Notes under the pieces: generated by a model | What the model saw: the letters and a program-made list of their open reading frames with translations, nothing else | What the model was told of the DNA's origin: nothing | Databases searched by the model: none | In this document: one piece after another, positions 4,002 through 29,904 of the stretch | Numbering within the stretch: position 1 is the stretch's first letter | Layout: each line of letters starts with the position of its first letter | Translations under genes and position numbers: made by a program | Virus record (IMG/VR): IMGVR_UViG_3300027996_003878 | DNA length: 64,000 nucleotides | Reading direction: 5' to 3' (one strand) | Source of the DNA: a virus | Taxonomy: Duplodnaviria; Caudoviricetes

Positions 4002-4032
4002 ATATTAAATCAAAACAACTTTGGGCCTCTAA

Positions 4033-4200: not shown

Positions 4201-4201
4201 A

Positions 4202-12186: not shown

Positions 12187-13044
12187 TTAATTTTTAAATT
12201 TAAAAGAAGACTCGTGTAATGTTTGGCGAATTAATCTCTTCTTTCTTTTTTTTGCTAAAAAGGCATCCATAGAGCGTAATTCAACAACTAATAGTCGGCT
12301 AGGCGAGCCACAATCTAGCATCATGAATTCTTCTCTTATTAAAGGCTTATAACTTGAACTGCCTAATTTTACCAACTCCTTATAATTGGCGCCGGCAACA
12401 ATTGTTTTACCACTTAATGCACTTACTTTCTCGCCCATACCAATGCTTCTAATTACACTAGTGCAAAGCTTCCTATCAAAAAACAAGCTCTGGAAAGAGC
12501 TGCCTTCCAGATCTTTATCTAAATCTAAGCCAGCATGTACAAAAATATAATCCTCTAAATGGTAGTAATTAATTGTATGATTTATTAAAAAATTAACATG
12601 AACTTCGGGTATTAAATTTAATATCCTGTCAGTCGTCAAACAATGAGGGTTTACATCTGATACGTTAAATCTTTTAAGATACCCAGAGATAGTCTCGTAG
12701 CCGCCACTACGAAGCCAAACGCTGATTGCATCCTCGCTGCACTCAAACGAAAATGGCTTGTCAATGACACCTAGCTTCCTTAAAATACACGCCTCTGTCG
12801 CGCCTCTTAAAAAGACAACCCTATCACCAAATTTCTCTTTTATGTCAATTAAATAATCAAAAACATAAGCAGATTGCTCTGTTTTGCCTGTATAATTGCC
12901 TAAAAATACTAAAGTATCATTGCCGCCATCGCTCTTACGTAGCGGTAAGATTCGAGCACAAATATTTTTTAATAAATCTAAAGAGCCGCGTATATCAGGA
13001 ATTACATATATGCAATTCAGAAAGGACGGACGCCACTTACTCAT
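12187..13044 (-). CDS. Metallophosphoesterase (PPP/calcineurin-like) homologue with degenerate metal-binding motifs
   Basis: PDIRG (vs GDIHG), FLGNYTGK (vs GDYIDRG), LRGATE (vs GNHE), FVHAG retained. Confidence 0.8.
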   Translation of the reverse strand: MSKWRPSFLNCIYVIPDIRGSLDLLKNICARILPLRKSDGGNDTLVFLGNYTGKTEQSAYVFDYLIDIKEKFGDRVVFLRGATEACILRKLGVIDKPFSFECSEDAISVWLRSGGYETISGYLKRFNVSDVNPHCLTTDRILNLIPEVHVNFLINHTINYYHLEDYIFVHAGLDLDKDLEGSSFQSLFFDRKLCTSVIRSIGMGEKVSALSGKTIVAGANYKELVKLGSSSYKPLIREEFMMLDCGSPSRLLVVELRSMDAFLAKKRKKRLIRQTLHESSFKFKN

Positions 13045-13052
13045 TAAATTGC

Positions 13053-13517
13053 TTAAAATGAATCAAATGCTTTGACAACACCTTCAACGACAGAAGGATC
13101 TGACGAAACACAAGTATAATCAAGGGTATCACTTACAACATCACTTTTAGATCTCTTAACGTACAATGCCCCTGACTCAAAAACATAAAATGATTCACTG
13201 ACACTTCGTGAAGTTTCGCTCTTATAAATCAGCCTGCCGTCCATAGACCTCACAAGCTTAAGAACATCAGCATCTTTTGAAGAAGTTGAAATATACCGAC
13301 TAACATCATGCAAACACGAATTCGTAGATAACGATTGAAAAAATAAAGACAATCGAGTGAAATTTATCAGATTACTAGGACTGAATTCTTTAGTATCTGG
13401 ATAAGAGTAAAATTGCCACCACTTTGGCTTTGCCGGCTGTCCAGCGGCAGTGCCGCCTAAACCTTTTAGCATTTCCATTAACTCATTCATATCAGGCATT
13501 TTAGTTTGATTCATCAA
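13053..13517 (-). CDS. Hypothetical protein
   Basis: 154 aa ORF. Confidence 0.7.
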   Translation of the reverse strand: MMNQTKMPDMNELMEMLKGLGGTAAGQPAKPKWWQFYSYPDTKEFSPSNLINFTRLSLFFQSLSTNSCLHDVSRYISTSSKDADVLKLVRSMDGRLIYKSETSRSVSESFYVFESGALYVKRSKSDVVSDTLDYTCVSSDPSVVEGVVKAFDSF

Positions 13518-13577
13518 TAATTCCTCTCCATATAAGTTCCACTAAAAAGCTTGTGTTATCGAAGAATAAAGTTAAAA

Positions 13578-15077
13578 TTAACATCTCTTTTTTCTAACTT
13601 CTCTTTTTTTATTGTTTAATCTAAAATAAACGCTATCAACTATTTGCCTCCTGATTCGTTGCAAGAATACAAGACTATCTATCTCATAATGTGATGGAAT
13701 TCTAAAATGAGTTACATGAACCGGAGTTCCCGGCAACACAGTGTCATTCATAGATATCTTAGAAAAACTATACTCTTTTACAGCGCCCATTAAAGATTCC
13801 TCAGCGTCTAGGCTCTTTACATCTATAAGCCTACCAATAAAACAAGGCCCATAATCCTTAAACTTTCTACCACCAATATATTTTTCTTCGGTTTTGTTTG
13901 GAATTGTTCTTTTTTCAGTGACATGAGCCTTAAACTCACTGATGCCTAAAAACAATGCTAAATTAGGATCTGTTAAAGAGACAATATCAATTGTTTCGCC
14001 ATTTTTTACAATAGAGAATGGCAAGTAATTTTCAACTAATTTTGAATATTCTTGAAAAATTCTTGCATGGATAGGAAAATCTGCCGTTTGATGTTTTAAA
14101 TGAACAAGATAAGAAATCATTTCTTCTGGAAAGTTTGCAAGCATTATCTTAAATGCTTCGTACATCAACTTCTTCTTCACAAAGGTAGACTTGTTCTGAT
14201 TTCTTGATATTAATCTAATTTGATTTTCGATGACATCTTTAAGGACATCATGCTCACGTATGAATCTTTGCTTATGCTCCAACTGATCGTCAGCAAAAAC
14301 GATTTTATAATCTGTTAAAGTATCCTCAAGCGTAAAATCGCCTCCGTCACCTTGGTTTAAACTGAAATTAAGGCTTAAAATATTTCTTGAAAATTGCTTA
14401 GTGGGGTGACTTTTTTTATCTAAATTATAACTTGCCCCGCAGTAAGAGCAATTAATGTAAGGGCAAGAGACACCAAACTCTGTCGCAGATGATTCAGGAA
14501 TAAACCGGACGCATTCTGGACAGCGATAGCCTTTCTTGGAATGCTTAACAAAGGCCCTATGAAGCATGAGTCTAGACTCCAGAGAGGCCTTTTCTTCAAC
14601 AGATGTAACTCTATCAATTTTATTCGAAATGATATTTATTTCTTTCGCACACTCCTTACACCGAAAATACTTTCCATCTTTATCAAGCCTCTCAATTTTT
14701 CCATAACACCTACAAGCGGGACATATAGGGGCAGTGACTTTTTCTTGCGTATTATTTTCTTTGTAAATTTTTATTGGAAGAATATTAATACATTTTAATA
14801 AGTATAAATTTAAATCTCTTCCGTCCCTCCAATGCTGTAATTTACAAAAGAAAACATAAAGAGCATTTCTAAGCTCTTGCTTTGCTCTTGCTCGAAACGA
14901 GCGTAACAAACTTTCCGGTACCTCGTCCGACAATTTTAAATTGTAAGCTTTGTATATCAAACGATCTATTTTCGACTTATACAATTCAAAAATATCATTT
15001 AATATCCAATTATCTATGTCGTTTTCAGTAATTTTATCGATAATTTGATTAAGCTTGAAAAAAATATTGTCAACCAT
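13578..15077 (-). CDS. Large Zn-ribbon protein with sigma70-like segments (probable start MVDNIFF at 15077)
   Basis: CPAC/CKEC/CPEC/CPYINC pairs; LSLNFSL..GDGGDFTLEDTL resembles sigma region 3.2; a terminator lies over the longer 15176 start. Confidence 0.7.
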   Translation of the reverse strand: MVDNIFFKLNQIIDKITENDIDNWILNDIFELYKSKIDRLIYKAYNLKLSDEVPESLLRSFRARAKQELRNALYVFFCKLQHWRDGRDLNLYLLKCINILPIKIYKENNTQEKVTAPICPACRCYGKIERLDKDGKYFRCKECAKEINIISNKIDRVTSVEEKASLESRLMLHRAFVKHSKKGYRCPECVRFIPESSATEFGVSCPYINCSYCGASYNLDKKSHPTKQFSRNILSLNFSLNQGDGGDFTLEDTLTDYKIVFADDQLEHKQRFIREHDVLKDVIENQIRLISRNQNKSTFVKKKLMYEAFKIMLANFPEEMISYLVHLKHQTADFPIHARIFQEYSKLVENYLPFSIVKNGETIDIVSLTDPNLALFLGISEFKAHVTEKRTIPNKTEEKYIGGRKFKDYGPCFIGRLIDVKSLDAEESLMGAVKEYSFSKISMNDTVLPGTPVHVTHFRIPSHYEIDSLVFLQRIRRQIVDSVYFRLNNKKREVRKKRC

Positions 15078-15141
15078 GCTTTTGTCTGTGATTAAAGGCA
15101 GATTAATTAACCGAACGACGCTTTTTAGGCTAATTAGAAGC

Positions 15142-15173
15142 AAAAAAAAGCCGAGATATGACCTATCTCGGCT
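15142..15173 (-). terminator. Rho-independent terminator after the FtsK-like gene
   Basis: 10-bp stem AGCCGAGATA/TATCTCGGCT, 5-nt loop, U-tract on the minus strand. Confidence 0.8.
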
Positions 15174-15239
15174 CATTGTCGTAACTCGACTAAAGCATAA
15201 TGCACGTATAACAAATACACAAATTCATTATTTTTTCAT

Positions 15240-16250
15240 CTAAGGCGCTATGTAAGCTGATTGAAACCGTACCTCTCCAAGCGAGGGGCTAATTAAAATG
15301 GCATCACCCTTACCCGCCAACAATTCGGCCCCTGGCCGGTCGATGATAACCTGAGAGTCCACTCTAGAGCTTGTACGGCACGCAATTCGTGCAGGAAAGT
15401 TCGCCTTAATTAGGCCCGTCAAGATGTCAACTGAAGGCCTCTGCGTCGCCACAATAATATGAATTCCGCATGCTCTTGATTTCTGAGCAATTTTAACAAG
15501 AAGTCTTTCAAATAAATTATTCTTATCATCCGTAATTAAATCAGCCACTTCGTCAATTACAATTAATATTTTTGAAAACAAGTTAGGCTTTTTCTTCAAG
15601 TCATTGACTCCACGCCTACTCATGATCGCATATCTTTTTTCCATTATTTTTTGGATTTTTTCAAGCATTTTTATTGTCGCATTAAGATCATTGCAAATTA
15701 CTTTCGCCTTGCGTTTATAAGAAGAAAATTCTACACGCTTAGGATCTACCAAATACAAATCAATATTCTGAAAATTCAATGCATTATAAATTAGGTTATG
15801 CAAAAGAACGCTTTTGCCAGAACCCGTTGTACCTGCAATTAGCAAATGGGGGTTATCACTCATATCCAAATGCAATGGCATACCGTGATCTGTCTCTCCA
15901 ATAACAAGCGGGAAAAAACCTCTTAAATTATTACGCTCACGCTTGTACAGTTCTTTGAGACATAGGGCCTTAGAGTCCCCACGAGTTCCCTGAAGCCGAA
16001 CAACCCCTTCTTCAGGGATTAGTTTACATGTCAGATTAGATTTTGTTTTTAAATACAAAGAGATTTCATCTATATATTTTTTAATCTCAGCTACACGATG
16101 GCCAGTTTTAATCATCGCATCATAGCTAACAAAATGACGATGCTCTCGTGCATTAACACAAACAGCGCCGATCTTAAAAGACTGAAACGCTTTATTTAAC
16201 TCCAACCTCATTGCAGAACTCATGACAGCATCGCAACCTTTCCAGACCAT
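15240..16250 (-). CDS. FtsK/SpoIIIE-family DNA translocase ATPase domain (no TM region)
   Basis: PHLLIAGTTGSGKS, LVDPKRVEF, IVIDEVADL, RACGIHIIVATQRPSVDILTGLIKANFPARIA...GAELLAGKGD. Confidence 0.93.
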   Translation of the reverse strand: MVWKGCDAVMSSAMRLELNKAFQSFKIGAVCVNAREHRHFVSYDAMIKTGHRVAEIKKYIDEISLYLKTKSNLTCKLIPEEGVVRLQGTRGDSKALCLKELYKRERNNLRGFFPLVIGETDHGMPLHLDMSDNPHLLIAGTTGSGKSVLLHNLIYNALNFQNIDLYLVDPKRVEFSSYKRKAKVICNDLNATIKMLEKIQKIMEKRYAIMSRRGVNDLKKKPNLFSKILIVIDEVADLITDDKNNLFERLLVKIAQKSRACGIHIIVATQRPSVDILTGLIKANFPARIACRTSSRVDSQVIIDRPGAELLAGKGDAILISPSLGEVRFQSAYIAP

Positions 16251-16411
16251 CTACCCTGATGCATACTCCACTCAAGTATCCGCCTGAACATAAAAACATG
16301 ATCAGAATTATAATAATTAATCCTTAACGGCTCTTGATCAATAAATTCTTTGATTTTTTTATTGCTAAATATACTTTTATAAGTTGACTTACGCATCTTA
16401 ATTAAATTCAA
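16220..16411 (-). CDS. Hypothetical small protein
   Basis: 63 aa ORF coupled to neighbours. Confidence 0.45.
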   Translation of the reverse strand: MNLIKMRKSTYKSIFSNKKIKEFIDQEPLRINYYNSDHVFMFRRILEWSMHQGRWSGKVAMLS

Positions 16412-16674
16412 TTTTTTTTTACCAAGTCTTTGTTGAAAAAATGAGCGCTAATATCTTTGTAAAGAAAATGCACATCCATGGACAATTCTTTACATACTCG
16501 CCTATGATCTTTTTTAAAAAGATCTTTTCCCTCATTGAACAAAAACTGATTACTTTTACCAGTAACTCTGTCGTTTGCCCGTAATTTAGCCCTAACGACT
16601 CTTTTCAACTCATCGCATCTTTCGCCATTTCCAGATGCAACTAAAACACTAAATAATTTTGGTATTGTCACCAC
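16408..16674 (-). CDS. Hypothetical protein
   Basis: 88 aa ORF. Confidence 0.55.
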   Translation of the reverse strand: MVTIPKLFSVLVASGNGERCDELKRVVRAKLRANDRVTGKSNQFLFNEGKDLFKKDHRRVCKELSMDVHFLYKDISAHFFNKDLVKKN

Positions 16675-16741
16675 AACTTTGAACTCCTCATGATTATAAA
16701 TTTAACCACTGAAGCTCACAGTGCAAGTTTTTTAATAATTA

Positions 16742-17161
16742 CTAGTGCTGTTTTTTTATTTTTTGAGCAATTTTTAATAATTTATCACTTCTTGAGATAC
16801 TAGAATCTTTTAACAATTCAACCTTATCTCCTAATTTAATTTTAAATTTGATTGCATGGCCAAAAGGTAACTCGATAACCATGTCAGAAGGCTCATTCGG
16901 GCCAACAGACTCTGTACTGAAGGGCACTCCCTTACAGATATCTATAATCTTACCTTTTTTACAGAAAATGATATCTAAAGGCGACGGCGTATCCTTCATC
17001 CAAAACTTCCTAACCATTGGAGTTCTGTAGGGAAAGACCATGCAATTTGGCGGCCACTCAACGCCCATCAATCCCTTTTGATACTCAAGTGAGCAAGTGG
17101 GAATAATTACATCAAAAATATGTTCATTTATTTTTATAATACCAGACTTCATTACTACCAA
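16742..17161 (-). CDS. DUF192-family protein
   Basis: QKGLM...MVF...FWMKDTPSPLDIIF...VIELP.G. Confidence 0.88.
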   Translation of the reverse strand: MVVMKSGIIKINEHIFDVIIPTCSLEYQKGLMGVEWPPNCMVFPYRTPMVRKFWMKDTPSPLDIIFCKKGKIIDICKGVPFSTESVGPNEPSDMVIELPFGHAIKFKIKLGDKVELLKDSSISRSDKLLKIAQKIKKQH

Positions 17162-17203
17162 CCTTGCTAATTAATATTATATAGTTAATAACAAATTATT
17201 AAT

Positions 17204-17857
17204 TTATTTTATCTTTGATGCCTTGTCAGTAATTTTCTTTTTTTTTAATGGCTTATCAATAAGTCTAGGTATGTCTTTTTTAGGTCTTATTATTTTATCA
17301 ATTAAACCATAATTCAGCGCCTCTTCCGCTGTAAAATATTTATCCGTAACACAGTCTTTTCTTATTTTGTCCAAAGTCTTGCCGCAATGTCTGGCCAAAA
17401 TATTCATAAGCACTTCGTTCAACTCCTTAACTCTATTTGATTCCAGTTCAATTTCTTTTTGACTGCCCTGAATTCCCCAAACTTGAACTGCATGAATCAT
17501 TACCTTAGAGTGCTGGTAGGCAAATCGCTTACCCTTAGTGCCTGCCGATAAAATAACAGCAGCAGCAGAGTAGGCTTCTCCTATACAAATCGTCCTAACC
17601 GGAGATTCAATAAATTGAATTGTATCATATATAGTTAATAAACCATCATTAACAGTGCCGCCTGGACTATTAATATAAATTGAAATATCTTCTTTATTAT
17701 TTTGCGAATCAAGCCAAAATAAAGTAGCAGTGAATGCAGTTGCGACTTCGGCGTCAATTTCGTCATGCAAAAATAGTATTCTATCTTTTGCTAATCGAGA
17801 ATAAATATCATATACAGCTTCACCGCCCTTGACTTTTTCATAAATCATCGGATGCAT
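17204..17857 (-). CDS. clpP: ATP-dependent Clp protease proteolytic subunit
   Basis: YDIYSRLAKDRILFL, YINSPGG, nucleophile AYSAAA, MIH, DKYFTAEEALNYGLID. Confidence 0.96.
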   Translation of the reverse strand: MHPMIYEKVKGGEAVYDIYSRLAKDRILFLHDEIDAEVATAFTATLFWLDSQNNKEDISIYINSPGGTVNDGLLTIYDTIQFIESPVRTICIGEAYSAAAVILSAGTKGKRFAYQHSKVMIHAVQVWGIQGSQKEIELESNRVKELNEVLMNILARHCGKTLDKIRKDCVTDKYFTAEEALNYGLIDKIIRPKKDIPRLIDKPLKKKKITDKASKIK

Positions 17858-17904
17858 ATTTGTAATAATTAAATGTTAAAGATCTTCACGACATAAAAAG
17901 AAAA

Positions 17905-17936
17905 ATAAAAAACCCGCCAAATTGGCGGGCTTTTTT
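17905..17936. terminator. Bidirectional Rho-independent terminator
   Basis: CCCGCCAA/TTGGCGGG inverted repeat flanked by A- and T-tracts. Confidence 0.85.
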
Positions 17937-17959
17937 ATGACTAATATTTTAAGCTTAAA

Positions 17960-18481
17960 TCAGTCAGCGGGTGAGATGTTTTCTAGTGCAGATATTTCGA
18001 TAATCTTAGGAGCAGGCGTGCTTCTTTTTTTATCTGATCTTGGACTCACTTCATGCGTGAAAATAAAATAAGCCGCAATATCGCTATTCTCCAAATAATT
18101 AGCAACGCCACACCAACCGTTAAATACAGCTTCTTTGCGAACGCCATTAAAACGAAGATCTGCAAGGTTCATTTTTACACTTGCGCGCTTTTTAACCTTG
18201 CTTGCAGAGCCACCCTTCTTATCAAAGAACGGACCATAAACAACTTGAGGCTCGACATTCCATTTTTCCACAAAAATATCTACGACATTCTTTTTAGAAA
18301 AATTATCGTTTTCGTTGTCCTTTAGCTTGTCTTTATAATCTATAGAGCGATATCTTTCAGAAACCAGCTCGTTATTGATTAACGATGAACAAACCCAAAT
18401 AACCGGGCGCGACCCCTTCGGCGCCCCTCTTTTTTTCTTTTGAATATTTTCAGATTCAGTTGAATTTTCAATTTGATTCAT
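17960..18481 (-). CDS. Hypothetical protein
   Basis: 173 aa ORF downstream of a sigma70-type promoter. Confidence 0.7.
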   Translation of the reverse strand: MNQIENSTESENIQKKKRGAPKGSRPVIWVCSSLINNELVSERYRSIDYKDKLKDNENDNFSKKNVVDIFVEKWNVEPQVVYGPFFDKKGGSASKVKKRASVKMNLADLRFNGVRKEAVFNGWCGVANYLENSDIAAYFIFTHEVSPRSDKKRSTPAPKIIEISALENISPAD

Positions 18482-18580
18482 TTAATTATTACCCTACCCC
18501 TGAACTTTTATTTAGTAACGTAATATTAATAATTTAAAAAAATTACTAAATAATTGTTCAGCGTTTCTTTGTACCTGAAG

Positions 18581-18609
18581 ATATTAAGCACCGCTCAAAA
18601 AGATGTCAA
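18581..18609 (-). promoter_or_regulatory. Sigma70-type promoter
   Basis: TTGACA-N17-TAATAT on the minus strand. Confidence 0.65.
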
Positions 18610-18746
18610 GAGAATGTAGTGAGATGTAGCAAAATAATCCAAAAAGCCCAGTTTTATTGAAAATTAACGAATAAAACCAATAACTTGTTAGTGTTTTGTC
18701 AATGTTCTGCAAAACCAATGACAAAGAGGAAAAAGAAACAACGATC

Positions 18747-19073
18747 TTACTTTTTTTTAAAAAAGTCTTTTTTCTCTCTAATTAAATTACTGAACTCAGA
18801 GTCAGGTATAAATTTGGTACTATTAAAGCTTTCAACATATTTTGCCTCATCTGAGAATGGTAATTTTGCAGAATGTCCATGAAATACGTAATTAAATAAT
18901 GTTCCAAAATTTTTTATGTATATAGCATTGTTATTCAATAATTCATTTTCTAAAAAATTGGAAATTATTCTACAAGAATCAATCAAATATTTTTTTGGCA
19001 CTTGGCCGTCCAACTTTTCGTATAGAATATTCACCAGCTTAGTTCTATTGATTCTCAAGATTCTCCTTTTCAA
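18747..19073 (-). CDS. HU/IHF-family DNA-binding protein
   Basis: INRTKLVNIL...IYIKNFGTL...KFIPDSEF. Confidence 0.8.
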   Translation of the reverse strand: MKRRILRINRTKLVNILYEKLDGQVPKKYLIDSCRIISNFLENELLNNNAIYIKNFGTLFNYVFHGHSAKLPFSDEAKYVESFNSTKFIPDSEFSNLIREKKDFFKKK

Positions 19074-19230
19074 TTAACTTCAATCTTGCATAAAGCTCTT
19101 CTCTAAGGGGGATGATTTTAGTATCAAGCGTGCGAACCTCCCTCATAAGTAGATCTTTTAATTTTCTTAATTTTTTTAATTCATGCTCTATATCTTCACA
19201 TGTGCAATCTTCAATATTTTTAAATTTCAT
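19045..19230 (-). CDS. Small coiled-coil hypothetical protein
   Basis: 61 aa heptad-rich ORF. Confidence 0.55.
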   Translation of the reverse strand: MKFKNIEDCTCEDIEHELKKLRKLKDLLMREVRTLDTKIIPLREELYARLKLIEKENLENQ

Positions 19231-19242
19231 TTAATGAAATAT

Positions 19243-19725: not shown

Positions 19726-19743
19726 TTTTCCTCCAAAAAAAAG

Positions 19744-20871: not shown

Positions 20872-21002
20872 ATTAACGATATAATAAAACCTCGTAAATC
20901 ATATATAACGTAAAAATGCTGAAAGTAATCAAAAAAATAAAGTACCGATACTTACAGCAAGGTGATTAATTAAAAATTAATCTTTTAATAAAGAGCAGAA
21001 TT

Positions 21003-21929
21003 ATGGATATTGTTATTGAACGTGGCAAAGTTGTTGATATTGAAACTCTGCCAGAATTCTCTATTGCTCTTGACGGTTATGTTCAAGGCCCCAGAATCGA
21101 TTCAAAACACAAAAGATATAGTTTCGATCATCACGGAGACTGCATTCGCTTTTGCACCACTTCAGCCTGCATGCAAACTTGGACCGCAATACTCTTAGGT
21201 CTAAATCCCCAAGATTACACAGTATTTGCAAATGATATCGATGCTGATGTCTGCGTCAGCGTATGGTGCCTAAAAAACCCCGAAAGATGCACAGAGCCAC
21301 TAGTGAAGAAGCTCGTAGATGCCGTTGGCATAGGCGACATGCACGGAGGGGCGCTAACAAGTAATGGAATGACCAAAACGGTCGAATGGATTAGCGCTCC
21401 AGAAACTGATTCAAAAAGAAACAACGATTACCACAAGCTATCCAATGACGGCCTCGGTACTATTATGGAGTCGGTTCTCCATCGAATTGACATGTACGTC
21501 AACGGAGAGGCTTCGGCAGAAATAGCAAAGCAGGCAAAGCACGGAGAGTATAAAATTCTCAGAAATGAAAATAACTGGGTCTTAGCAGAGTCTCAGGACC
21601 CTCATGCGCTATCTTCTCTTTATCAAGGTGGTTTTGATCGTATTTTGCTAACAAGGCCTCAAGAAGACGGCTCTATCGCCGTAACAATCGCAAAGAGGAG
21701 CGACTTTATAAGCAGCTTCCCAATAACTAAAATGTATGATGAGCTTAACAAATTAGAAGATGGCTGGGGAGGAAGCTCAATTATTGGTGGTGCGCCAAGA
21801 AATGATGATGGCTCAAGAACTAGATTATCTTTAGATAAGATTTGTGAAATAATTGATAACTGCGTGCTCAATAAAAAAGTTCAAAGCGTAACAAAAAGAT
21901 CTAAAAAAACAAGATCAAAAAAAAGCTAA
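21003..21929 (+). CDS. DHH-family phosphoesterase-like protein
   Basis: ALDG, FDHH, NDIDAD motifs, GWGG near the C-terminus. Confidence 0.6.
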   Translation: MDIVIERGKVVDIETLPEFSIALDGYVQGPRIDSKHKRYSFDHHGDCIRFCTTSACMQTWTAILLGLNPQDYTVFANDIDADVCVSVWCLKNPERCTEPLVKKLVDAVGIGDMHGGALTSNGMTKTVEWISAPETDSKRNNDYHKLSNDGLGTIMESVLHRIDMYVNGEASAEIAKQAKHGEYKILRNENNWVLAESQDPHALSSLYQGGFDRILLTRPQEDGSIAVTIAKRSDFISSFPITKMYDELNKLEDGWGGSSIIGGAPRNDDGSRTRLSLDKICEIIDNCVLNKKVQSVTKRSKKTRSKKS

Positions 21930-21933
21930 AGAA

Positions 21934-22593
21934 TTATATTAAAGTAGATTCTATACGATTCTGATTAAAGATTTGAACACACAAGCGCCCAGTTTTCTCA
22001 GGCCGAGTATTTATATTACAAGAATATGAGTAATACTTTGGAAGGCCGTCAGAGTCAGAGCTACCTCCACTTACCACATAACCAAACCTGCCATCATAAT
22101 AATGATGCCATGACTTAGAGCTTACCTCTGCCTCCTTGTCCGGCAAGATATCATTTACAAAGCAAGAATCTATATCATTTGAAATATTGTACCAAGAAGA
22201 ATTGGGCTTAATTCCCCCGTGAAGTACAGTCACGCTGTTAGTTGAATTAAATGAAAACCCCACAACTAAAGGCTGTTTCTCCATCCAAAGAACAAGATCA
22301 GTTATTTCTCTTCTCTCCCTCGCCTTTCTAATGTGAGCCAATTCATTCACACCGCGAACAAAAAATACTTTACCAGACTTTTGTAAATCAATTATTTTTT
22401 TATAAATAGAAATATCTTCAATAGTGTAATCTACACTGGAAGCATTTCCAACAAAGCATATATAATTATCCCTCAACAAAGAATCTAAAGAACCCAACAA
22501 GCCCAGCTTTTTAAAAAAAAGCTGGGCTTGTCCATTTATATTACCAAAAACAATTAACTTGCCATTATTTAAAATATCAACCTTACCAAGCAT
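21934..22593 (-). CDS. Second degenerate metallophosphoesterase homologue
   Basis: FGNING (vs GDIHG), VGNASS (vs GDLVDRG), RGVNE (vs GNHE), LHGGI. Confidence 0.7.
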   Translation of the reverse strand: MLGKVDILNNGKLIVFGNINGQAQLFFKKLGLLGSLDSLLRDNYICFVGNASSVDYTIEDISIYKKIIDLQKSGKVFFVRGVNELAHIRKARERREITDLVLWMEKQPLVVGFSFNSTNSVTVLHGGIKPNSSWYNISNDIDSCFVNDILPDKEAEVSSKSWHHYYDGRFGYVVSGGSSDSDGLPKYYSYSCNINTRPEKTGRLCVQIFNQNRIESTLI

Positions 22594-22596
22594 ACA

Positions 22597-23328
22597 TCAA
22601 AATTTATAAGGAGTTAAAAATCCAATTTCTTCGGTAAATTGCCTCGCCATTTTCTCTTCAAGACTTTGCGCCTTGTACCCAAGCTTATGGTACAATCCGT
22701 ATTTATAACTAAGCGCATGATAAAGCTCATGAGCAAAAGCATGATGAAACTCATTCACTCTAATTTTCGCCTTCCCAAACCGAATTACGGTGCGATGTTT
22801 ATTCAACACGTCATTTCTTACATAAAGATGGCTTGATTGCCTAGAATAATAACCCCAAAGATTACCTTTACCCAACGATTTTGCCCTCTCACGAAAGCGA
22901 TACTTATAATCGTTCAAATTTCTGGCAGATCGACCTCCATCATAACTAGCAAAGGGAAGAAGAGAGACATCTATTCTTGAAGGGAGTTCATATTTATATT
23001 TATTAGACGAAACTCTTTTAATATTCAATCTAACTTTGTATTTTTTGATAAAGTGGGCAACCACATAGTTACAAGTCGCATTTAACTCTTTAACACTATG
23101 ATACGTTCTCTTTGAAATATTATACTCAATATTTGACGGACGCCACTCCACAATACGTACATTCTTACACAAATATTTAAGTTTAATTGTTTTTCGCAAA
23201 CGCTCCGATGGCATTGTCTCCTCCATACAGAAAGACTTTGACTTAAAAGTACAAGCATCCAATGCAAAAGAGTTATTTGAAAAAGAAATAACACTCAAAG
23301 CTACAAATAAAAAATAAAAAATTCTCAT
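22597..23328 (-). CDS. Secreted zincin-like metalloprotease candidate
   Basis: Signal-peptide-like N-terminus; FAHELYHA (HExxH). Confidence 0.5.
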   Translation of the reverse strand: MRIFYFLFVALSVISFSNNSFALDACTFKSKSFCMEETMPSERLRKTIKLKYLCKNVRIVEWRPSNIEYNISKRTYHSVKELNATCNYVVAHFIKKYKVRLNIKRVSSNKYKYELPSRIDVSLLPFASYDGGRSARNLNDYKYRFRERAKSLGKGNLWGYYSRQSSHLYVRNDVLNKHRTVIRFGKAKIRVNEFHHAFAHELYHALSYKYGLYHKLGYKAQSLEEKMARQFTEEIGFLTPYKF

Positions 23329-23375
23329 GAATATAATATAACTATTGTTATTTACATGTCAATATTAAATCGTTA

Positions 23376-23666
23376 CTAAATGGCTTTTTTTCTTTCTTTT
23401 TCAATCCGAGAGCTTTGCCAGTGCCAAATTGTTTTTTGTAGCTCCGAGTAAGAATTTATATTTAAATTTGAAGAAAGAAAGCAAATAATCATAACAATTT
23501 CGCCATAAACTACTCCGATAGCCTCCTCAGACAACTCACCGCTGATAAGCTCACTGATAAGATTGTTGAGCCTGGCCGCGCTATCCAGAAGTGATAGATT
23601 GTGCTTTTCAGCCTCACGCTCAGCTTCCTCCCACAAAACCTCAAAATGCTTCAAATTAGACCTCAC
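23376..23666 (-). CDS. Hypothetical protein, possibly MazG-like all-alpha fold
   Basis: WEEAERE and YGEIVMIICFLSSNLNINSYSEL loosely resemble MazG LGDVLF...ID.E.AL. Confidence 0.4.
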   Translation of the reverse strand: MRSNLKHFEVLWEEAEREAEKHNLSLLDSAARLNNLISELISGELSEEAIGVVYGEIVMIICFLSSNLNINSYSELQKTIWHWQSSRIEKERKKAI

Positions 23667-23670
23667 AAAT

Positions 23671-23708
23671 AAAAAACCCTTGTTTTTTTATAACAAGGGT
23701 TTTATTTT
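23671..23708. terminator. Bidirectional terminator
   Basis: 12-bp stem AAAACCCTTGTT/AACAAGGGTTTT. Confidence 0.75.
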
Positions 23709-23730
23709 TCTTTATTATTTATACGCCGCT

Positions 23731-24342
23731 TCACCTTGCAATGCTATAAACATAAGATCCTCGTGTTCCATCGACAACAATATCACCACGCTTTTTCAAT
23801 TGAAACAAATAACTATTAAGCATAGATCTTTTAATATCTACCTTTTGCTGTTTTAGGTAGGACTCAAGATCTCCAGCGGAGATGCCTTTATTATGACTGC
23901 CAATGGCGCTCAAAACAGCTGAAGTTTTTGTATTAGCACGTTTTTTAGACTTCGGCTTAGCCTTATTAACATGACTTTTTACCAACCCCTTAGTCTCTTG
24001 AGGGCGCTTATTTTCTTGAGGGCGCTTGCTAGCAGGAGCTGAATCAATATCAGATGACTTTGATCGATTTTTTGACTTACGATTCAAGGACTTATTATTG
24101 TCACTAAAATTAAATGCGTCTACAACATTACGCAATTCATAATAACTTTTTTCAGCTTGAATCATTTTTCGCTGAAGATGCCCTTCAATCAAATTTCTAA
24201 ACTTTTCATCATTCTGAATCATTTCATTCAAAAGAGCTACCTGGTTTTTGGTCAATTGCTTCATAGTTTTCCTTATCATTAAAAAGATTTTGGCCTTATT
24301 TAAAGGCCGCTTACAGAGAGTATAATAATAACAAAAATACAC
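23731..24342 (-). CDS. Basic protein with C-terminal winged-helix-like domain (start probably downstream of 24342)
   Basis: VLSAIGSHNKGISAGDL...LFQLKKRGDIV. Confidence 0.65.
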   Translation of the reverse strand: MYFCYYYTLCKRPLNKAKIFLMIRKTMKQLTKNQVALLNEMIQNDEKFRNLIEGHLQRKMIQAEKSYYELRNVVDAFNFSDNNKSLNRKSKNRSKSSDIDSAPASKRPQENKRPQETKGLVKSHVNKAKPKSKKRANTKTSAVLSAIGSHNKGISAGDLESYLKQQKVDIKRSMLNSYLFQLKKRGDIVVDGTRGSYVYSIAR

Positions 24343-24366
24343 AAGTCAATAGCATTACTTGTAAAA

Positions 24367-24397
24367 AAATAAAAAAGCCTCAATAAAACATTGAGGC
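24367..24397 (-). terminator. Rho-independent terminator
   Basis: 8-bp stem GCCTCAAT/ATTGAGGC with a U-tract on the minus strand. Confidence 0.8.
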
Positions 24398-24430
24398 CTT
24401 TAAATTTATGATTTAAAATAAATAATACCT

Positions 24431-24973
24431 TTAGTAGTCCTTAGGGTAGTCTCTGAAATTATTGAAGCTATCATTAAAGTCACGACCCGATTGGTAATCA
24501 AAACCATCAGATCCGCGATTATAATCACCACCTCGAACTACAACATCATAATTACTACGATTATAATTTTGACGTGAACGATGAGGTCGGTTGTACTCCT
24601 TAATCGGACCTACAACCTGCAATTCCTCACAGCCATCCTTACTTGTGAAGATGATAAAGATCATTCCTTTGCTGCAATCAATTGCACCTCGAAACATCAA
24701 CTTTCCAACATAAAACTTTTTCCCATACTTATCTTTTCTGGAGTCAAGGCTAACTCTAACCCTATCATTTCTTTTCGAATATTTGGAGAATGTTGTATTA
24801 TCATTATTTATAGTTGCAACCTGCAACTCCTCCTCACCATCTTCAGAAAGAAAAATCAAAAACGTCACACCGTCAGAGCAATTAATCGATCCAGGAAACT
24901 GAAGCTTCCCTAAATGAAACATACTACCGTTTTTATCTTCTCTTGGATGTAATTCTACTTTCATATTAACCAT
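24431..24973 (-). CDS. Hypothetical protein with a tandem-duplicated beta domain and an R/G/N/D/Y-rich tail
   Basis: Two copies of R.DK.G..F..GKL.F.G.I.CS.G..F.IF.S.DG.EELQV. Confidence 0.8.
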   Translation of the reverse strand: MVNMKVELHPREDKNGSMFHLGKLQFPGSINCSDGVTFLIFLSEDGEEELQVATINNDNTTFSKYSKRNDRVRVSLDSRKDKYGKKFYVGKLMFRGAIDCSKGMIFIIFTSKDGCEELQVVGPIKEYNRPHRSRQNYNRSNYDVVVRGGDYNRGSDGFDYQSGRDFNDSFNNFRDYPKDY

Positions 24974-25050
24974 AATACCTATCCTATTTTTTTTAATTTA
25001 ACTAATTGCCTAAATAATAATCCTTGCAACAAACAATCAAGGCTACGTAT

Positions 25051-25079
25051 ATAATAACCTTAAAGGCATTCCTAGTCAA
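25051..25079 (-). promoter_or_regulatory. Sigma70-type promoter
   Basis: TTGACT-N17-TATTAT. Confidence 0.65.
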
Positions 25080-25206
25080 GTGCAGCGTAAACCCCTAGAA
25101 TCATTGAAAAAAAATAAAGGTGTAATAAAAACATTGTAAGTTGCAATAAATCTTTATTTATAATTAAAATTATAATTAACAAAAATATATGAAATTATTA
25201 ATATTT

Positions 25207-26010
25207 TTATTTTTCATTGAATAGATTTTTCGCTCTAAATACGTCATAACCATTAAGCAATATATTATATATAAAATCTTTGTCATCTAAAAAGACTGGT
25301 ATGTCGCTATCAAGCGTCCATTTATTTTTTTTTAATTCCTTATTATTGTTATTGATTAATGTTGGTACTTTATAAGCCGCTGTACCTCGAACAAAGCTAG
25401 TCGGGTATAAATTGTAAAAATTAATATCACAAATTTCAAACAACAAATCTATTTTTTCTTCAACTGTCTTTCCGCTAATTAATCTTTCAGCTTCATGTCT
25501 GCCATAAACATCTGATATGTAATAAAAGCAAGAGTCATAAATTATTGATCTAATAGACTTCTGTTGCCTGTACATTAGATAATTGTAAACCTCAGCCAAA
25601 GACGGTAATGCAAATGCCTTTGAATAGAAGGCCACATCACCAGAATTACTTAAATCTGCCCTACACTTATTGAGTGACTTAATAAACCCTAGCGTAACCA
25701 AGCTTGCTGATATTGAAGATATTTTTTGAACGTTATTTTGATACCAAGAGTCATTGTCATTTTTAATGATTAAATTAATCTCATCATAACATTGTAATAC
25801 AAAAACTGCGCTTTGAACGTTAGTAGCCAAAAAAAGAGAAGCATCACCCATGCATTCCATTAGAAATGCATCAAACGAGCCATATTCTAAATCAAATATC
25901 TTTTTTAAATTTCTTGCTTGTATTCTTATAGCTAAAGGTAGTCCGCTTGTAATTTTATAATCATAACAGTCCTCATAAATTAACTGTCTTTTAGCTAGTG
26001 ATAATGACAT
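25207..26010 (-). CDS. tRNA-His guanylyltransferase (Thg1/TLP)-like protein, active site partly degenerate
   Basis: IRIQARNL (vs IRLDGR.F), QCYDEI (vs QSDEI), VQKISSISAS, EVYNYLMYRQ. Confidence 0.8.
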   Translation of the reverse strand: MSLSLAKRQLIYEDCYDYKITSGLPLAIRIQARNLKKIFDLEYGSFDAFLMECMGDASLFLATNVQSAVFVLQCYDEINLIIKNDNDSWYQNNVQKISSISASLVTLGFIKSLNKCRADLSNSGDVAFYSKAFALPSLAEVYNYLMYRQQKSIRSIIYDSCFYYISDVYGRHEAERLISGKTVEEKIDLLFEICDINFYNLYPTSFVRGTAAYKVPTLINNNNKELKKNKWTLDSDIPVFLDDKDFIYNILLNGYDVFRAKNLFNEK

Positions 26011-26012
26011 TT

Positions 26013-26591
26013 TTAAAATTTAGAATCTAGTAATTTTATAAAAGAATTTATACTACCCAGCTTATTGACTGGGATGCTTATACCAAGATGACCTCCTGTT
26101 CTAGGAATCTCGATAATTTTTTCACAATAATCATTCCAAATCTTGCTATTTCGAGCGCACCACCCTGCAATGTGAAAGTGGGGTTCAAAAAAACCATCAT
26201 TAAACTTTGGCTCTTTCAAATGAATAAAAACCTGAATGTAAGCATCAATTTCTTTTGTAATTTCTTCCTTTTTTATAAAAAGGTTCAAATTATCACGGTA
26301 AGGATAATAGCTACTAGTTTTTATATTAATAAGCTTTGTTGCATTATTAACCTTTACTACTAAATCTGATTCGTCGCCCGTCCCTACACAAAATTCAATG
26401 CTACACTTTTTATGCTGGCGACTTAAAATATCAAAGATTAGCAAGCTTCCAATCAAATCTAAAAGATCACCCTCACCGCGCTCTTGATCTTGAGTCTCAT
26501 TAAATCCAGAATACCTTTTATGCGGAGTATAATTTAAATAAGTATATTGAGCGTAGTCTAAAATTTGAGAAGGAATTATATTTTCATTCAT
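26013..26591 (-). CDS. PD-(D/E)xK nuclease-like hypothetical protein
   Basis: GDESD...INIKT resembles D...(D/E)xK with Asn in the second acidic position. Confidence 0.4.
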   Translation of the reverse strand: MNENIIPSQILDYAQYTYLNYTPHKRYSGFNETQDQERGEGDLLDLIGSLLIFDILSRQHKKCSIEFCVGTGDESDLVVKVNNATKLINIKTSSYYPYRDNLNLFIKKEEITKEIDAYIQVFIHLKEPKFNDGFFEPHFHIAGWCARNSKIWNDYCEKIIEIPRTGGHLGISIPVNKLGSINSFIKLLDSKF

Positions 26592-26653
26592 GATAAATAA
26601 TTGTAAGTGAGAGCTTTAAACCCTCACTTATACAAAATAATTAAAATTAAAAT

Positions 26654-26899
26654 CTAAACTTCAAAGTTTAGATTTATATCTAAATCGTTATTATCAACAG
26701 TTAACTTATCATTCAGAACAAACCATTGATCAAGATTACACCGCATAGCCATTACTGCTCTATCTGAGCAACGATACAATGTGTTATTAACCTCTGGTTC
26801 TTCGCTATGCAGAGCCTCTAGCGCGGAAAGTATATCGTAATGATGACTCAAAACTTCACCAGAAAACGACTCAATCTCAAAATTAATCTTACTGCTCAT
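26654..26899 (-). CDS. Hypothetical protein
   Basis: 81 aa ORF with SD-like GGGGAG upstream. Confidence 0.65.
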   Translation of the reverse strand: MSSKINFEIESFSGEVLSHHYDILSALEALHSEEPEVNNTLYRCSDRAVMAMRCNLDQWFVLNDKLTVDNNDLDINLNFEV

Positions 26900-27063
26900 T
26901 TAAACTCCCCGTTTATTCGCACACATCAGCGTTGATGAGACATCAACCCCTTTAAGGTTATACAAAGCAAGGAAAAAGTCAAACAAAAACGAACAAATCA
27001 CAGCACAATGAACAGGTTATCAACAGCTTAAATTATACATAAACAAGAGATATATAAAAATAC

Positions 27064-27321
27064 ATGAGACTTAATGCATTATTTATGCTAACTATCTTGC
27101 TAAGCGGTTGCAACTTTGGTAATTTTCATCTTGAGTATATAGCAAATAGAAAATTCGAATATTGTATACTGTTAGACATGGCGCAAAAAATAAATGATGG
27201 CGAAAAATTAGGTTGCTGGATAAAATGGCTATACTACAATTATGAGCATGCCAGCGAAGAAAGAAAAAAATATGGAGCAAAGAGGGTTAATGATATTTAC
27301 TCCATAATTAAATTCAAATAG
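27064..27321 (+). CDS. Putative lipoprotein
   Basis: Lipobox-like LLSGC after a hydrophobic stretch. Confidence 0.45.
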   Translation: MRLNALFMLTILLSGCNFGNFHLEYIANRKFEYCILLDMAQKINDGEKLGCWIKWLYYNYEHASEERKKYGAKRVNDIYSIIKFK

Positions 27322-27505
27322 ATCTAATTCTACCTGTAGCTATACCTTCTCCATTCAAGGTGTCAATAATATTATTGATAATAGCGCCGACAAGCAATAA
27401 TTGCCCGGATAATTCATCACAATCAATTAAATTATCGTTCAAGTAGTCAATTTTAGATTTTAAATCACCAAGCTCTTTAGCAATATTTTTTTTAGAGCCA
27501 AGCAT
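27314..27505 (-). CDS. Hypothetical small protein
   Basis: 63 aa ORF. Confidence 0.5.
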   Translation of the reverse strand: MLGSKKNIAKELGDLKSKIDYLNDNLIDCDELSGQLLLVGAIINNIIDTLNGEGIATGRIRSI

Positions 27506-27509
27506 ATAA

Positions 27510-27920
27510 TTAATTGGTAAGATAATTTACCACAAGACTATGAATCGAGCTATCTACATTTGACTTCCAGCTATCATCATTATTTTTTATTGACTCTCTA
27601 ATTGCCGTGGCGGAGATAAAACCAATATCCGCCGGAGGCTTATGCTCAATCGTGCCGTAGCCTACGCCTCTCCCCCAATTGACGCTTTCTATGTCGGGGA
27701 TGACCATTACCTCCACATCTTGATCTTTATAAACTTCTTTGATCATTTTCACAGTTTGATCTGTGGTGAATGGGTTTTTCTCATCAGGAGGAATGTCTCG
27801 AACACAGATCAAAACAGGGGTTCCCTCATCAAGCTTTTGACTAATAAGCCACTTGTGGCCGTTATGCATCGGCTGCCATCTACCTATAAACATAGCTCTT
27901 TTCATATTAACCCTCATCAC
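27510..27920 (-). CDS. HIGH-class nucleotidyltransferase (cytidylyltransferase-like)
   Basis: FIGRWQPMHNGH (HxGH) and ISATAIR. Confidence 0.88.
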   Translation of the reverse strand: MMRVNMKRAMFIGRWQPMHNGHKWLISQKLDEGTPVLICVRDIPPDEKNPFTTDQTVKMIKEVYKDQDVEVMVIPDIESVNWGRGVGYGTIEHKPPADIGFISATAIRESIKNNDDSWKSNVDSSIHSLVVNYLTN

Positions 27921-28266
27921 CTAATAATTGACTTTCAACTTGAGACCAGCTTTCAAATCTCAAAGCATGATCATCAATATAATAACTAGCAGCTATCTTC
28001 GTATTTGTAACATCATCAAAATAAGAAGAAAGATTATATTTTTCCAACCAGGGAACAATATACTTAACTGGCCTGCTTGACATAACGACCAAGCGGTAAC
28101 CTTTACTCTTTAATTTTTTTAAAGAAGCCTCTACCCCCTCCATTGGAGGATCATAAGCATTATCTAAACCTTGAAAGCCCCTGGAATATCGATGAATTAC
28201 TCCATCAAAATCAATTGCAAGGGTTTTTCTTTTTTGCTCTAGTGGTATCTCTTTAATCTCAGACAT
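27907..28266 (-). CDS. HAD-superfamily phosphatase
   Basis: AIDFDGVI, MSSR, K...YIDD. Confidence 0.88.
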   Translation of the reverse strand: MSEIKEIPLEQKRKTLAIDFDGVIHRYSRGFQGLDNAYDPPMEGVEASLKKLKSKGYRLVVMSSRPVKYIVPWLEKYNLSSYFDDVTNTKIAASYYIDDHALRFESWSQVESQLLGDEG

Positions 28267-28317
28267 AACAAATAACCAATGTCTAAAAACACATAAGAAA
28301 ATTAATGTATCGACAAA

Positions 28318-28668
28318 TTAAAAATTTATAACCTCAATACCATCTTCGGTTGTATAATAAATTTTATTAACTTTTTTTGTTTTTATTGCACTCATGCAGC
28401 GCGCACAAGGCCTGGCAAGGCCGTAAGATCCATCCCTCTTAACCCTAGCGACGTAAAGAGTACATCCAAAACCACACTTTCTTAGCACCCTTGTCTCTGC
28501 ATGAATATACGGAGTAACGACTCGATTTGAAGTATTTCGTGATGTTACAATAACACCATCTGCCCGAACAGCAGCCGCCCCCAAATAAAAATGACGACGA
28601 CGATCATTATTAAATTTAGCAGCGCTCGCCGCCAAATCAATCATTCTTTTAATTTTCAAAGACATCAA
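28318..28668 (-). CDS. Zn-dependent deaminase (cytidine/dCMP deaminase fold)
   Basis: HAE and ARPCARC. Confidence 0.88.
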   Translation of the reverse strand: MMSLKIKRMIDLAASAAKFNNDRRRHFYLGAAAVRADGVIVTSRNTSNRVVTPYIHAETRVLRKCGFGCTLYVARVKRDGSYGLARPCARCMSAIKTKKVNKIYYTTEDGIEVINF

Positions 28669-28952
28669 TTACGGCTAATCGAACTATCAATACTTCCGTC
28701 ATCCTGTGCAACTTTTAAGAGCACCAAATATCCTATTAAATCCATAACCGTATCTTCATCTAAGTCATTTCCATGACCGTTAGAAATTCTGGACAATTTA
28801 TCATCAATGCGGATTTTTATTTGCTCAACAGAATCCGCTCTTGAAAAAACTCTGATTGGAGAAATTGCCGAATCTCCATATTTACGATTTTTTGAAATTA
28901 ATAAATCTTTAACTTGATCTACTACAGATAATATTTTATCTTCTGTACTCAT
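28665..28952 (-). CDS. DUF1599 / nucleotide-modification-associated-domain-like protein
   Basis: KNRKYGDS...RIDDKLSRI...DTVMDLIGYLVL. Confidence 0.7.
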   Translation of the reverse strand: MSTEDKILSVVDQVKDLLISKNRKYGDSAISPIRVFSRADSVEQIKIRIDDKLSRISNGHGNDLDEDTVMDLIGYLVLLKVAQDDGSIDSSISRN

Positions 28953-28958
28953 TAATAA

Positions 28959-29834
28959 CTAATCTTCAAACTTTGAAGCCTCTCGTTTTCTATCTAAATA
29001 TACAGAAGCTCCGTTGTACAAAAAATCTGAAATCTTACGAAGATCTAACTTAGATGTATAAACAATATGACCTAGTTCTTTATTGTTTTTCGATCTTTTT
29101 ACTTTAATATCTCTTTCCCCAACACCACAATGGTTTTTCAGGACCGCCATGAAAGATTGTAAAAACTCAACAGGGCCGCTTGTTTTAAAGTATACAACCC
29201 TACCGGTATCTTTATCTTTATAAAAGTTACCCTTGGCATCCACCCACCCTCTAAGAAAATGTCGAACCAAAGAATGATTCTTAACCCAATCAGGCATGTT
29301 ATAGTTATAAGTTTTAGAAGAGGTTACATTGAATTCTTCTTCTAAATCTGTAACCATCTCCTTTGAAGATACCAAAAACCTTACCGTCAAATAAGGGTTT
29401 GTATTTTTGTTAATGGTCAATTTTTTTACAGGGGCCTCGGATTTGATCGCATTCTTTAACTTATTTAAAAACGCCTCTTCTCTAAAAGACATATTAACAA
29501 AAATTCTATAGCTAGACTTTCCGCTTGTATTTCGAGAGATATTTCCATTTCCCGCTAAAAAGCCAGCCCAATAAAACTGCTCCTCCCCTTCTCTTGAAAA
29601 GAAGCGATGATCGCAATCATATTTTCTAAAAGAAAAACCATATTTAATATTATTTTTCTTAAATAGGCCAACCATTTTTGACCGACTCATATTATACTTT
29701 TTCGCTACTTTAGAAATATTCTTGTATTTTAAGTAATCATCCTGCAATGCTTTTCTAACATCACCGCTAAGGACCCCCTCAAAATCAACAAGACTATTTA
29801 AACTTAAATCATCAAATAAAATATTTTCACTCAT
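28959..29834 (-). CDS. Free-standing double LAGLIDADG homing-endonuclease homologue with N-terminal HTH, both catalytic Asp replaced
   Basis: WAGFLAGNG and LRGWVDAKG; ISKVAKKYNMSRS HTH. Confidence 0.8.
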   Translation of the reverse strand: MSENILFDDLSLNSLVDFEGVLSGDVRKALQDDYLKYKNISKVAKKYNMSRSKMVGLFKKNNIKYGFSFRKYDCDHRFFSREGEEQFYWAGFLAGNGNISRNTSGKSSYRIFVNMSFREEAFLNKLKNAIKSEAPVKKLTINKNTNPYLTVRFLVSSKEMVTDLEEEFNVTSSKTYNYNMPDWVKNHSLVRHFLRGWVDAKGNFYKDKDTGRVVYFKTSGPVEFLQSFMAVLKNHCGVGERDIKVKRSKNNKELGHIVYTSKLDLRKISDFLYNGASVYLDRKREASKFED

Positions 29835-29904
29835 AGGGATAATCTAACCACCCTGGTCGTAATTGCAATAGTAAAAAATCTATTAAATTAAAAAGTAAAT
29901 ACAG

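Follow-up and report, generated by a model that had tools for sequence, protein, structure and literature searches.

Background

To our knowledge, pseudoenzymes are well known in cells, while they have hardly been charted in phages. Among the relatives of the PPP metallophosphoesterases, non-catalytic members include Vps29 and the B subunits of DNA polymerases. Among LAGLIDADG proteins, the bI3 maturase has lost its endonuclease activity and binds RNA, and WhiA, which does not cut DNA, is devoid of the metal-binding acids (PMC3384342). In the Thg1-like protein (TLP) of Bacillus thuringiensis (BtTLP), D30 and D75 bind two Mg ions, and a D75A variant is nearly inactive (PMC3701042). In the jumbo-phage and TLP literature that was available to us, we found no description of Asn/Gln-type or inactive TLP and phosphatase forms. 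Here, we analyze a 64-kb stretch of DNA (hereafter the window, whose numbering is used throughout) that belongs to an uncultured jumbo-phage contig of ~296 kb and 34% GC (IMG/VR record IMGVR_UViG_3300027996_003878), and we focus on four of its genes, which encode two pseudo-phosphatases (MP1 and MP2), a TLP, and a protein that combines a helix-turn-helix (HTH) with a double LAGLIDADG core. All four, together with two more tentative open reading frames (ORFs) of 192 and 96 amino acids (aa), lie on the minus strand.

We hold, with moderate confidence, that these four genes may best be read as retained pseudoenzymes, i.e., folded and selectively kept proteins that would be unable to perform the chemistry of their families, and that they would go back to at least three separate histories. 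An initial annotation of this DNA, made from the sequence alone, had listed four inactivated enzymes in this neighborhood and, more tentatively, two others. Alignments to many homologs bear out MP1, MP2, the TLP, and the LAGLIDADG protein, while the remaining two, a PD-(D/E)xK-like protein ('INIK'; the 192-aa ORF) and a MazG-like protein (the 96-aa ORF), stayed unconfirmed. The D-to-N substitutions that it had pointed out were confirmed: MP2 has two of them, and MP1 and the LAGLIDADG protein also show such changes.

Results

MP1 has lost most of its active site

The MP1 gene (12187-13044, minus strand) encodes a 285-aa PPP-type pseudo-phosphatase of the lambda-phosphatase/ApaH/Pnkp-like kind, whose motifs read DIR, GNYTGK, GATE, HAG, and GA. 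Taken singly, the protein falls just short of the cutoff for Pfam Metallophos (PF00149; E=0.0017), and it can be aligned to the Rhizobiales-like phosphatase 2 structure (PDB 5VJV). A search for its homologs returned 256 matches, 119 of which were aligned at ~40% identity and nearly all of which carry PF00149, with a family E-value of 1e-60; the family has two motifs of its own, MSKWRP and ILPLR. In a metagenome scan with MP1, the relatives recovered were at 35-37% identity only, and the sister strain was not among them.

At nine PPP active-site positions, 105 of the 119 homologs read D-H-D-D-R-N-H-H-H, whereas MP1 of the window reads D-R-N-G-K-A-T-H-A. The PPP metal-binding and catalytic motifs (DxH, GDxxDR, GNH(E), the motif IV His, and GH) are thus broken by changes at seven of the nine positions, and the active-site residues retained are Asp17 and His170. 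Against these seven of nine, changes affect 5 of the 56 other positions that are conserved at 90% or more (Fisher p=3.5e-5), which argues that the loss in MP1 is specific to the active site.

Eight other degenerate members of the family were found in the protein collection and IMG/VR. When the catalytic columns are removed from the alignment, the best tree needs seven state changes, and its well-supported branches force at least three; a single origin of the degenerate MP1s was rejected on the same footing (approximately unbiased (AU) test, p=7e-7). The independent lineages converge, with H19 replaced by R, N, or Y and D50 replaced by N. Outside the active site, the degenerate proteins retain 45-51 of the 56 conserved positions, compared with a canonical mean of 54. 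Further, two already degenerate sister proteins are identical at 51 of the 56 conserved columns versus 103 of the 207 others, which indicates that constraint continued after the active site had been lost. A second role, independent of catalysis, appears to preserve MP1 once its active site has been lost.

Intact pseudo-phosphatase orthologs of MP1 with other substitutions occur in two of the syntenic relatives described below, at 2269-3039 of locus L274 (genome G034), with the motifs DIN/GNYMGG/GDND, and at 3729-4490 of locus L273 (genome G036), with PEVRG/GGYIDGD/GDHE. The syntenic interval holds no MP2 gene in either case.

MP2 belongs to a different phosphatase family, and its loss is correlated with that of MP1

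MP2 (21934-22593, minus strand) is a 219-aa pseudo-phosphatase of a different PPP family from MP1, with the motifs GNING, GNASS, GVNE, HGG, and GG. It has no direct Pfam match and is linked to the family by two proteins that carry PF00149 (P0029 and P0030), to which it is 31-39% identical (E about 1e-27); 16 relatives were found in IMG/VR. Its active site reads N-N-N-S-V-N-H-G versus the canonical D-H-D-D-N-H-H-H, i.e., seven of the eight residues are lost and one His is kept, while the closest canonical homologs retain all eight. The family motif W..YDGRFGYVVS is invariant, the window protein included, and a second degenerate relative (P0031) was identified.

Both phosphatases are canonical in 12 relative contigs (11 distinct; IMG/VR contig 3300028029_000006, locus L270, is an example), from which we conclude that the lineage of the window phage lost both active sites. 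The state of the two genes was then compared across genomes. Both are degenerate in the window phage; G034 and G036 have a degenerate but intact MP1 and no MP2, the latter being absent by deletion in these two genomes as well as in G022 and G031; two complete genomes without MP1 have a non-canonical MP2; and two fragments carry a canonical MP1 and lack MP2. Loss of MP1 and loss of MP2 are correlated (Fisher p=0.015, or ~0.018 with near-identical contigs merged, both values being uncorrected for phylogeny). That the two are lost or degraded together across genomes suggests that MP1 and MP2 probably act in one process or complex. Among the pseudoenzymes, correlated loss is limited to the two phosphatases.

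A Thg1-like protein without the first metal-binding carboxylate

The TLP (25207-26010, minus strand; 267 aa) matches PF04446 (Thg1; E=6.6e-11), PF14413 (Thg1C; E=4e-6), and phrog_4717 (E=2e-25), and aligns over 246 residues with the BtTLP structure (4KGK; E=1.5e-17). Where BtTLP has three carboxylates (D30, D75, and E76), the window protein has Gln31-Ala32 in place of D30-G31, so that the first metal-binding Asp and the Gly after it are both replaced, and it keeps the other two as Asp76 and Glu77. At the residues of the activation step (K44, S75, and N161 in ScThg1), it has Tyr for Ser75 and Ser in the Asn column (position 155), while the Lys column was mapped without confidence. Most of the divergence lies in the N-terminal palm domain, where 9 of the 22 universally conserved residues are changed versus 0 of 9 in the C-terminal half.

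Replacement of the first metal-binding Asp is also found well beyond this phage. Asn stands at this position in 38 of 88 TLP homologs, which form a deep clade in huge phages, and the window TLP branches beside that clade. The Asn-type proteins share the co-substitutions S75N, D129T, R131Q, R148K, and D151Q, and four of the five complete genomes with an Asn-type TLP have a canonical TLP too. Single-protein scans of IMG/VR yielded no close relatives of the window TLP or of the 192-aa ORF. The positional orthologs of the window TLP carry D, N, K, S, or Q at the first carboxylate, with E77 changed to K, Q, or D, alongside intact phosphatases; TLP varies freely where the phosphatases are intact, which indicates that its degeneracy is not coupled to phosphatase loss. 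By position, the window TLP is the ortholog of a TLP in which, within this clade, another residue has often taken the place of the first carboxylate; in larger phages this TLP usually has a canonical one next to it. The window TLP most likely retains binding to tRNA or a nucleotide, or enters a Thg1-type tetramer, and would do so without polymerizing.

The Asn-type loci (L001-L033) come from IMG/VR huge phages, in which Asn-type and canonical copies form the pairs L009/L073, L008/L048, L023/L047, and L030/L044. The genomes with Asn-type TLPs were also considered as close kin of the window phage and rejected as such, given that 23 of 24 lack MP1. Beside the TLP lies a 180-aa protein (24431-24973, minus strand) with two ~65-residue repeats, a low-complexity tail, and no family match. 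A one- or two-repeat homolog occurs near TLP in 24 huge-phage loci, and it directly adjoins TLP in the closest syntenic relatives. As a specific partner of TLP it was rejected, the two being 3-10 kb apart in those 24 loci, i.e., in conserved synteny rather than adjacency.

An HTH-LAGLIDADG protein from an old nuclease-dead subfamily

The fourth gene (28959-29834, minus strand) encodes a free-standing HTH and double LAGLIDADG protein of 291 aa that matches PF14528 and PF00961. We aligned it in a set of 153 sequences (149 database representatives, the window protein, and three near-identical strain variants), of which 132 have the catalytic Asp at both positions, against Asn96 and Lys201 in the window protein. 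In seventeen of the representatives, one catalytic Asp or both are missing, the latter in nearly all of them. They include the 12 that are nearest to the window protein (31-49% identity), which points to an old nuclease-dead subfamily. Phage intron endonucleases, for their part, have Asp at the end of both LAGLIDADG motifs.

An AlphaFold2 (AF2) model of the protein (predicted local distance difference test (pLDDT) score of 88.7) contains HTH-like N-terminal helices (residues 24-60) followed by the double LAGLIDADG core. In a Foldseek search with this model, the best matches were the bI3 maturase (2AB5) and I-AniI (E=6e-11), and I-SceI and I-OnuI were found as well. The gene is 6 bp from the next gene and does not reside in an intron, an intein, or an obvious insertion within a host gene; Rfam, at the gathering threshold, detected no group I intron in the window. 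Neither Pfam nor NCBIfam matched the protein to DUF199/WhiA. The sequence comparisons indicate that it is a domestication separate from WhiA, with the homing endonucleases of phage introns as its nearest active relatives. It would most likely bind nucleic acids in a sequence-specific manner, as a regulator or as a maturase-like factor.

Three of the genes lie in an ancestral block and the fourth in a lineage-specific insert

A tblastn comparison of all window proteins with fetched regions showed that at least seven IMG/VR huge-phage contigs are colinear with the window between ~5 kb and 26 kb. The conserved huge-phage gene block (4989-26010, minus strand; colinear with loci L269-L276) runs from TopA to TLP in the order TopA, MP1, a 532-aa Zn-ribbon protein, an FtsK-like ATPase, DUF192, ClpP, two HU-like proteins, a DHH protein, MP2, an HExxH protein, the 180-aa repeat protein, and TLP. 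Because of this colinearity, MP1, MP2, and TLP are positional orthologs inside an ancestral block. The adjoining interval (26013-30252, minus strand) has no counterpart in the syntenic relatives and constitutes a lineage-specific insert, which contains the 192-aa ORF, an NMNAT-like protein, a small HAD protein, a deaminase, a 95-aa phrog_1485 protein, and the LAGLIDADG protein; the last therefore arrived with the insert. At the nucleotide level, megablast against INPHARED found no near relatives of the region.

The degenerate genes are kept intact, next to one that is not

In strain variants, all four degenerate genes are full length, without stops or frameshifts. On one sister-strain contig, three of them together differ at 8 of 777 residues (1.0%), compared with 25 of 979 (2.6%) in seven neighbors. 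Degenerate forms of the LAGLIDADG protein and TLP are found throughout deep clades, at identities as low as 31-49%. With the conserved positions that degenerate MP1s keep, the intact variants and their low divergence indicate that these are not decaying pseudogenes.

The initial annotation had stated that neighboring enzymes keep their active sites and that there is no general decay. By motif inspection, catalytic residues do look intact in eleven controls, i.e., TopA, dUTPase, ClpP, a trypsin-like protease, an HD protein, a PP-loop protein, APS kinase, adenylosuccinate synthetase, the NMNAT-like protein, the HAD protein, and the deaminase. When recognizable enzyme-family ORFs are counted by location, 4 of 11 are degenerate between 12 and 30 kb versus 0 of 20 elsewhere in the window (p=0.01, post hoc). 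The second half of the claim needs a qualification, however. A cysteine-synthase-like pyridoxal phosphate (PLP) gene beside MP1 (11067-11968, plus strand) is frameshifted at its SGN/TGIAL motif, leaving ORFs of 72 aa and 216 aa; the truncated product occurs on at least 20 contigs, while a sister strain has an intact 299-aa protein (P0304). The area is therefore not free of decay. At 49118-50428, the window carries a further PALP gene, which is complete.

Tentative ORFs and other neighbors

The 192-aa ORF (26013-26591, minus strand), i.e., the earlier PD-(D/E)xK-like candidate, lies 2 bp upstream of TLP and has no match in Pfam, PHROG, NCBIfam, PDB, phage tblastn, or IMG/VR. Its AF2 single-sequence model has a pLDDT of 32, and its neighbors in the language-model-based Atlas, which are named 'restriction endonuclease' and 'T4 endonuclease IV', serve as leads only. 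The 96-aa (probably 92-aa) ORF (23376-23666, minus strand) is weakly MazG-like by its Atlas feature scores (0.85-0.89 to MazG-like clusters), the alignment being too uncertain to score the EExxE...ExxD residues, and it matches nothing in Pfam or PDB. PDB sequence searches with the 192-, 96-, and 95-aa ORFs returned nothing meaningful. The 95-aa ORF (28665-28952, minus strand) was also considered as the 'MazG-like' case and rejected, given that it belongs to the well-conserved phrog_1485 family and shows no lineage-specific loss. It is 50-54% identical to its counterparts in Synechococcus phage S-CRM01 and in Microbacterium phages, an unusually high level for phages that differ so much.

Elsewhere in the block, the 532-aa protein (13578-15176, minus strand) has several Cys clusters and no Pfam match; in most of the syntenic relatives (L269-L275) a counterpart of 31-40% identity lies between the FtsK-like gene and MP1, and L276 has no match. 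The DHH-motif protein (21003-21929, plus strand) is 57% identical to its L270 counterpart; in L270 this gene shares one strand with the rest of the block, so that it appears inverted in the window phage. Finally, an AAA+ ATPase (6576-7895, minus strand) has the Walker B stretch LLYIEDID versus the usual hhhhDE, as judged by eye from a single sequence.

Discussion

The reading of the four genes as retained pseudoenzymes would combine three histories. MP1 and MP2 would be positional orthologs of two PPP phosphoesterases of the block, both of which would have lost their metal-binding residues in this lineage. The TLP would derive from the block TLP, with its often-replaced first carboxylate, and the HTH-LAGLIDADG protein would have inherited a dead active site from its old subfamily. 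A single systematic exaptation of one neighborhood, which the initial annotation had proposed, is not supported, as the block is ancestral and holds canonical enzymes in relatives, the LAGLIDADG protein is separate, and the TLP is uncoupled. Several observations also weigh against the reading as retained pseudoenzymes. MP1 sits on a long branch (0.95) and TLP on a very long one (1.29), both of which would fit relaxed constraint as well, and the TLP has lost 9 of the 22 universally conserved palm-domain residues. On another strain contig, MP1 differs by 3.5% versus 0.5% in the adjacent gene, and the gene neighboring MP1 is frameshifted. The correlation between MP1 and MP2 comes down to at most three independent contrasts, with fragmentary contigs among them. 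Finally, the sequence read amounts to 64 kb of a ~296-kb genome, and statements on paralogs apply to the window.

A narrower form of coordination would involve the TLP and the two phosphoesterases, which may have served in RNA-end repair or nucleotide-signal degradation and could have been converted as a set to binders, sponges, or decoys against host defense. Jumbo-phage Thg1 and calcineurin-like phosphatases have indeed been assigned to RNA repair and counter-signalling (PMC7824862), and such a conversion would be consistent with three syntenic genes that are all degenerate here while both phosphatases are canonical in 11-12 relatives, with the correlated losses of MP1 and MP2, with D-to-N as the classic change that preserves ligand binding, and with the conserved ORFs. 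We nevertheless consider it unlikely, given that TLP degeneracy is common where the phosphatases are intact, that MP2 was deleted rather than converted in G034 and G036, that the LAGLIDADG protein is of separate origin, and that no candidate had a PADLOC or anti-defense match. The opposite extreme would be slow decay, with the four genes as relics of dispensable functions that are still open through shortness of time and are heading for deletion. The frameshift in the cysteine-synthase-like gene, seen in at least 20 contigs of this strain against an intact copy in a sister strain, would fit this, as would the deletion of MP2 in G034, G036, G022, and G031, the long branches of MP1 and TLP, and the loss of many universally conserved palm residues in the TLP. 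However, the variants of the four genes have acquired no stop or frameshift, non-catalytic conserved positions are near the canonical level, degenerate forms span deep clades with identities down to 31-49%, and strain-level divergence is not raised overall, all of which makes decay distinctly unlikely.

The proteins might also be enzymes of altered chemistry, using another metal or a metal-independent reaction, or, for the Asn/Gln-type TLPs, a step that needs the remaining Asp-Glu pair alone. Asn is invariant in the 38 TLPs, with coherent co-substitutions, and looks like a selected alternative site; in addition, Asp17 and His170 are still present in MP1, as is one His in MP2. Yet six or seven of the eight or nine ligands of MP1 and MP2 are replaced, including by Gly, Ala, Thr, Val, and Ser, which do not bind metals; the window TLP has Gln-Ala rather than the Asn-Gly of the clade and lacks the activation-step Ser too; and the LAGLIDADG protein has lost both acids, as have proteins shown to be inactive (PMC3384342). 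We regard altered chemistry as highly unlikely. A further reading would join several of these strands. MP1 and MP2 could form an obligate functional pair in a clade of huge phages, perhaps with the TLP, and the whole module could have been turned here into non-catalytic counter-defense binders that would, for instance, act as decoys or sponges of signalling nucleotides or of damaged tRNA ends, while, separately, Asn-type TLPs could serve as regulatory or tRNA-holding subunits in mixed tetramers with canonical TLP. This joint reading of the sequence patterns is unlikely in our judgment; if it were true, Asn-type and canonical TLPs would constitute a pseudoenzyme-enzyme partnership not described for 3'-5' polymerases.

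As retained pseudoenzymes, these genes would provide four conserved phage cases, each with active orthologs for comparison. They would include one phage phosphatase family with repeated active-site loss and convergent D-to-N and H-to-R changes, two unrelated huge-phage PPP phosphoesterases that appear functionally linked, a widespread TLP clade without the first catalytic Asp that usually accompanies a canonical copy, and a nuclease-dead HTH-LAGLIDADG subfamily distinct from WhiA. Annotation pipelines label such genes as active phosphatases, guanylyltransferases, and endonucleases.

Comparison with known systems

The LAGLIDADG protein shares the monomeric double-LAGLIDADG fold with the bI3 maturase (2AB5) and I-AniI, and bI3 is likewise nuclease-dead. 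It differs from both in sequence (17% identity), in not being intron-encoded, and in its N-terminal HTH. WhiA (DUF199) resembles it in combining a nuclease-dead double LAGLIDADG core with an HTH, whereas the HTH is N-terminal in the window protein and C-terminal in WhiA, and the window protein keeps the conserved Lys174 while WhiA has lost the basic residues in question. Compared with BtTLP (4KGK), the window TLP retains Asp76, Glu77, Arg29, and Glu13, and its C-terminal domain is well conserved. Unlike BtTLP, it has Gln at the first Mg-binding Asp (Asn in the large sister clade), Tyr at the activation-step Ser, and Lys at Arg131.

For the phosphatases, the closest described systems are PPP enzymes of the lambda phosphatase/ApaH/Pnkp type. 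MP1 and MP2 are clear homologs of canonical members. The canonical relatives of the two show weak similarity to ApaH, PrpA/B, PrpE, and the phosphatase domain of Pnkp. As in Vps29, the fold is retained and the metal site is lost. MP1 (MSKWRP...ILPLR) and MP2 (W..YDGRFGYVVS) differ from these known PPP proteins in forming phage families of their own, and in the case of MP1 the loss of the active site is recurrent and convergent inside one phage family.

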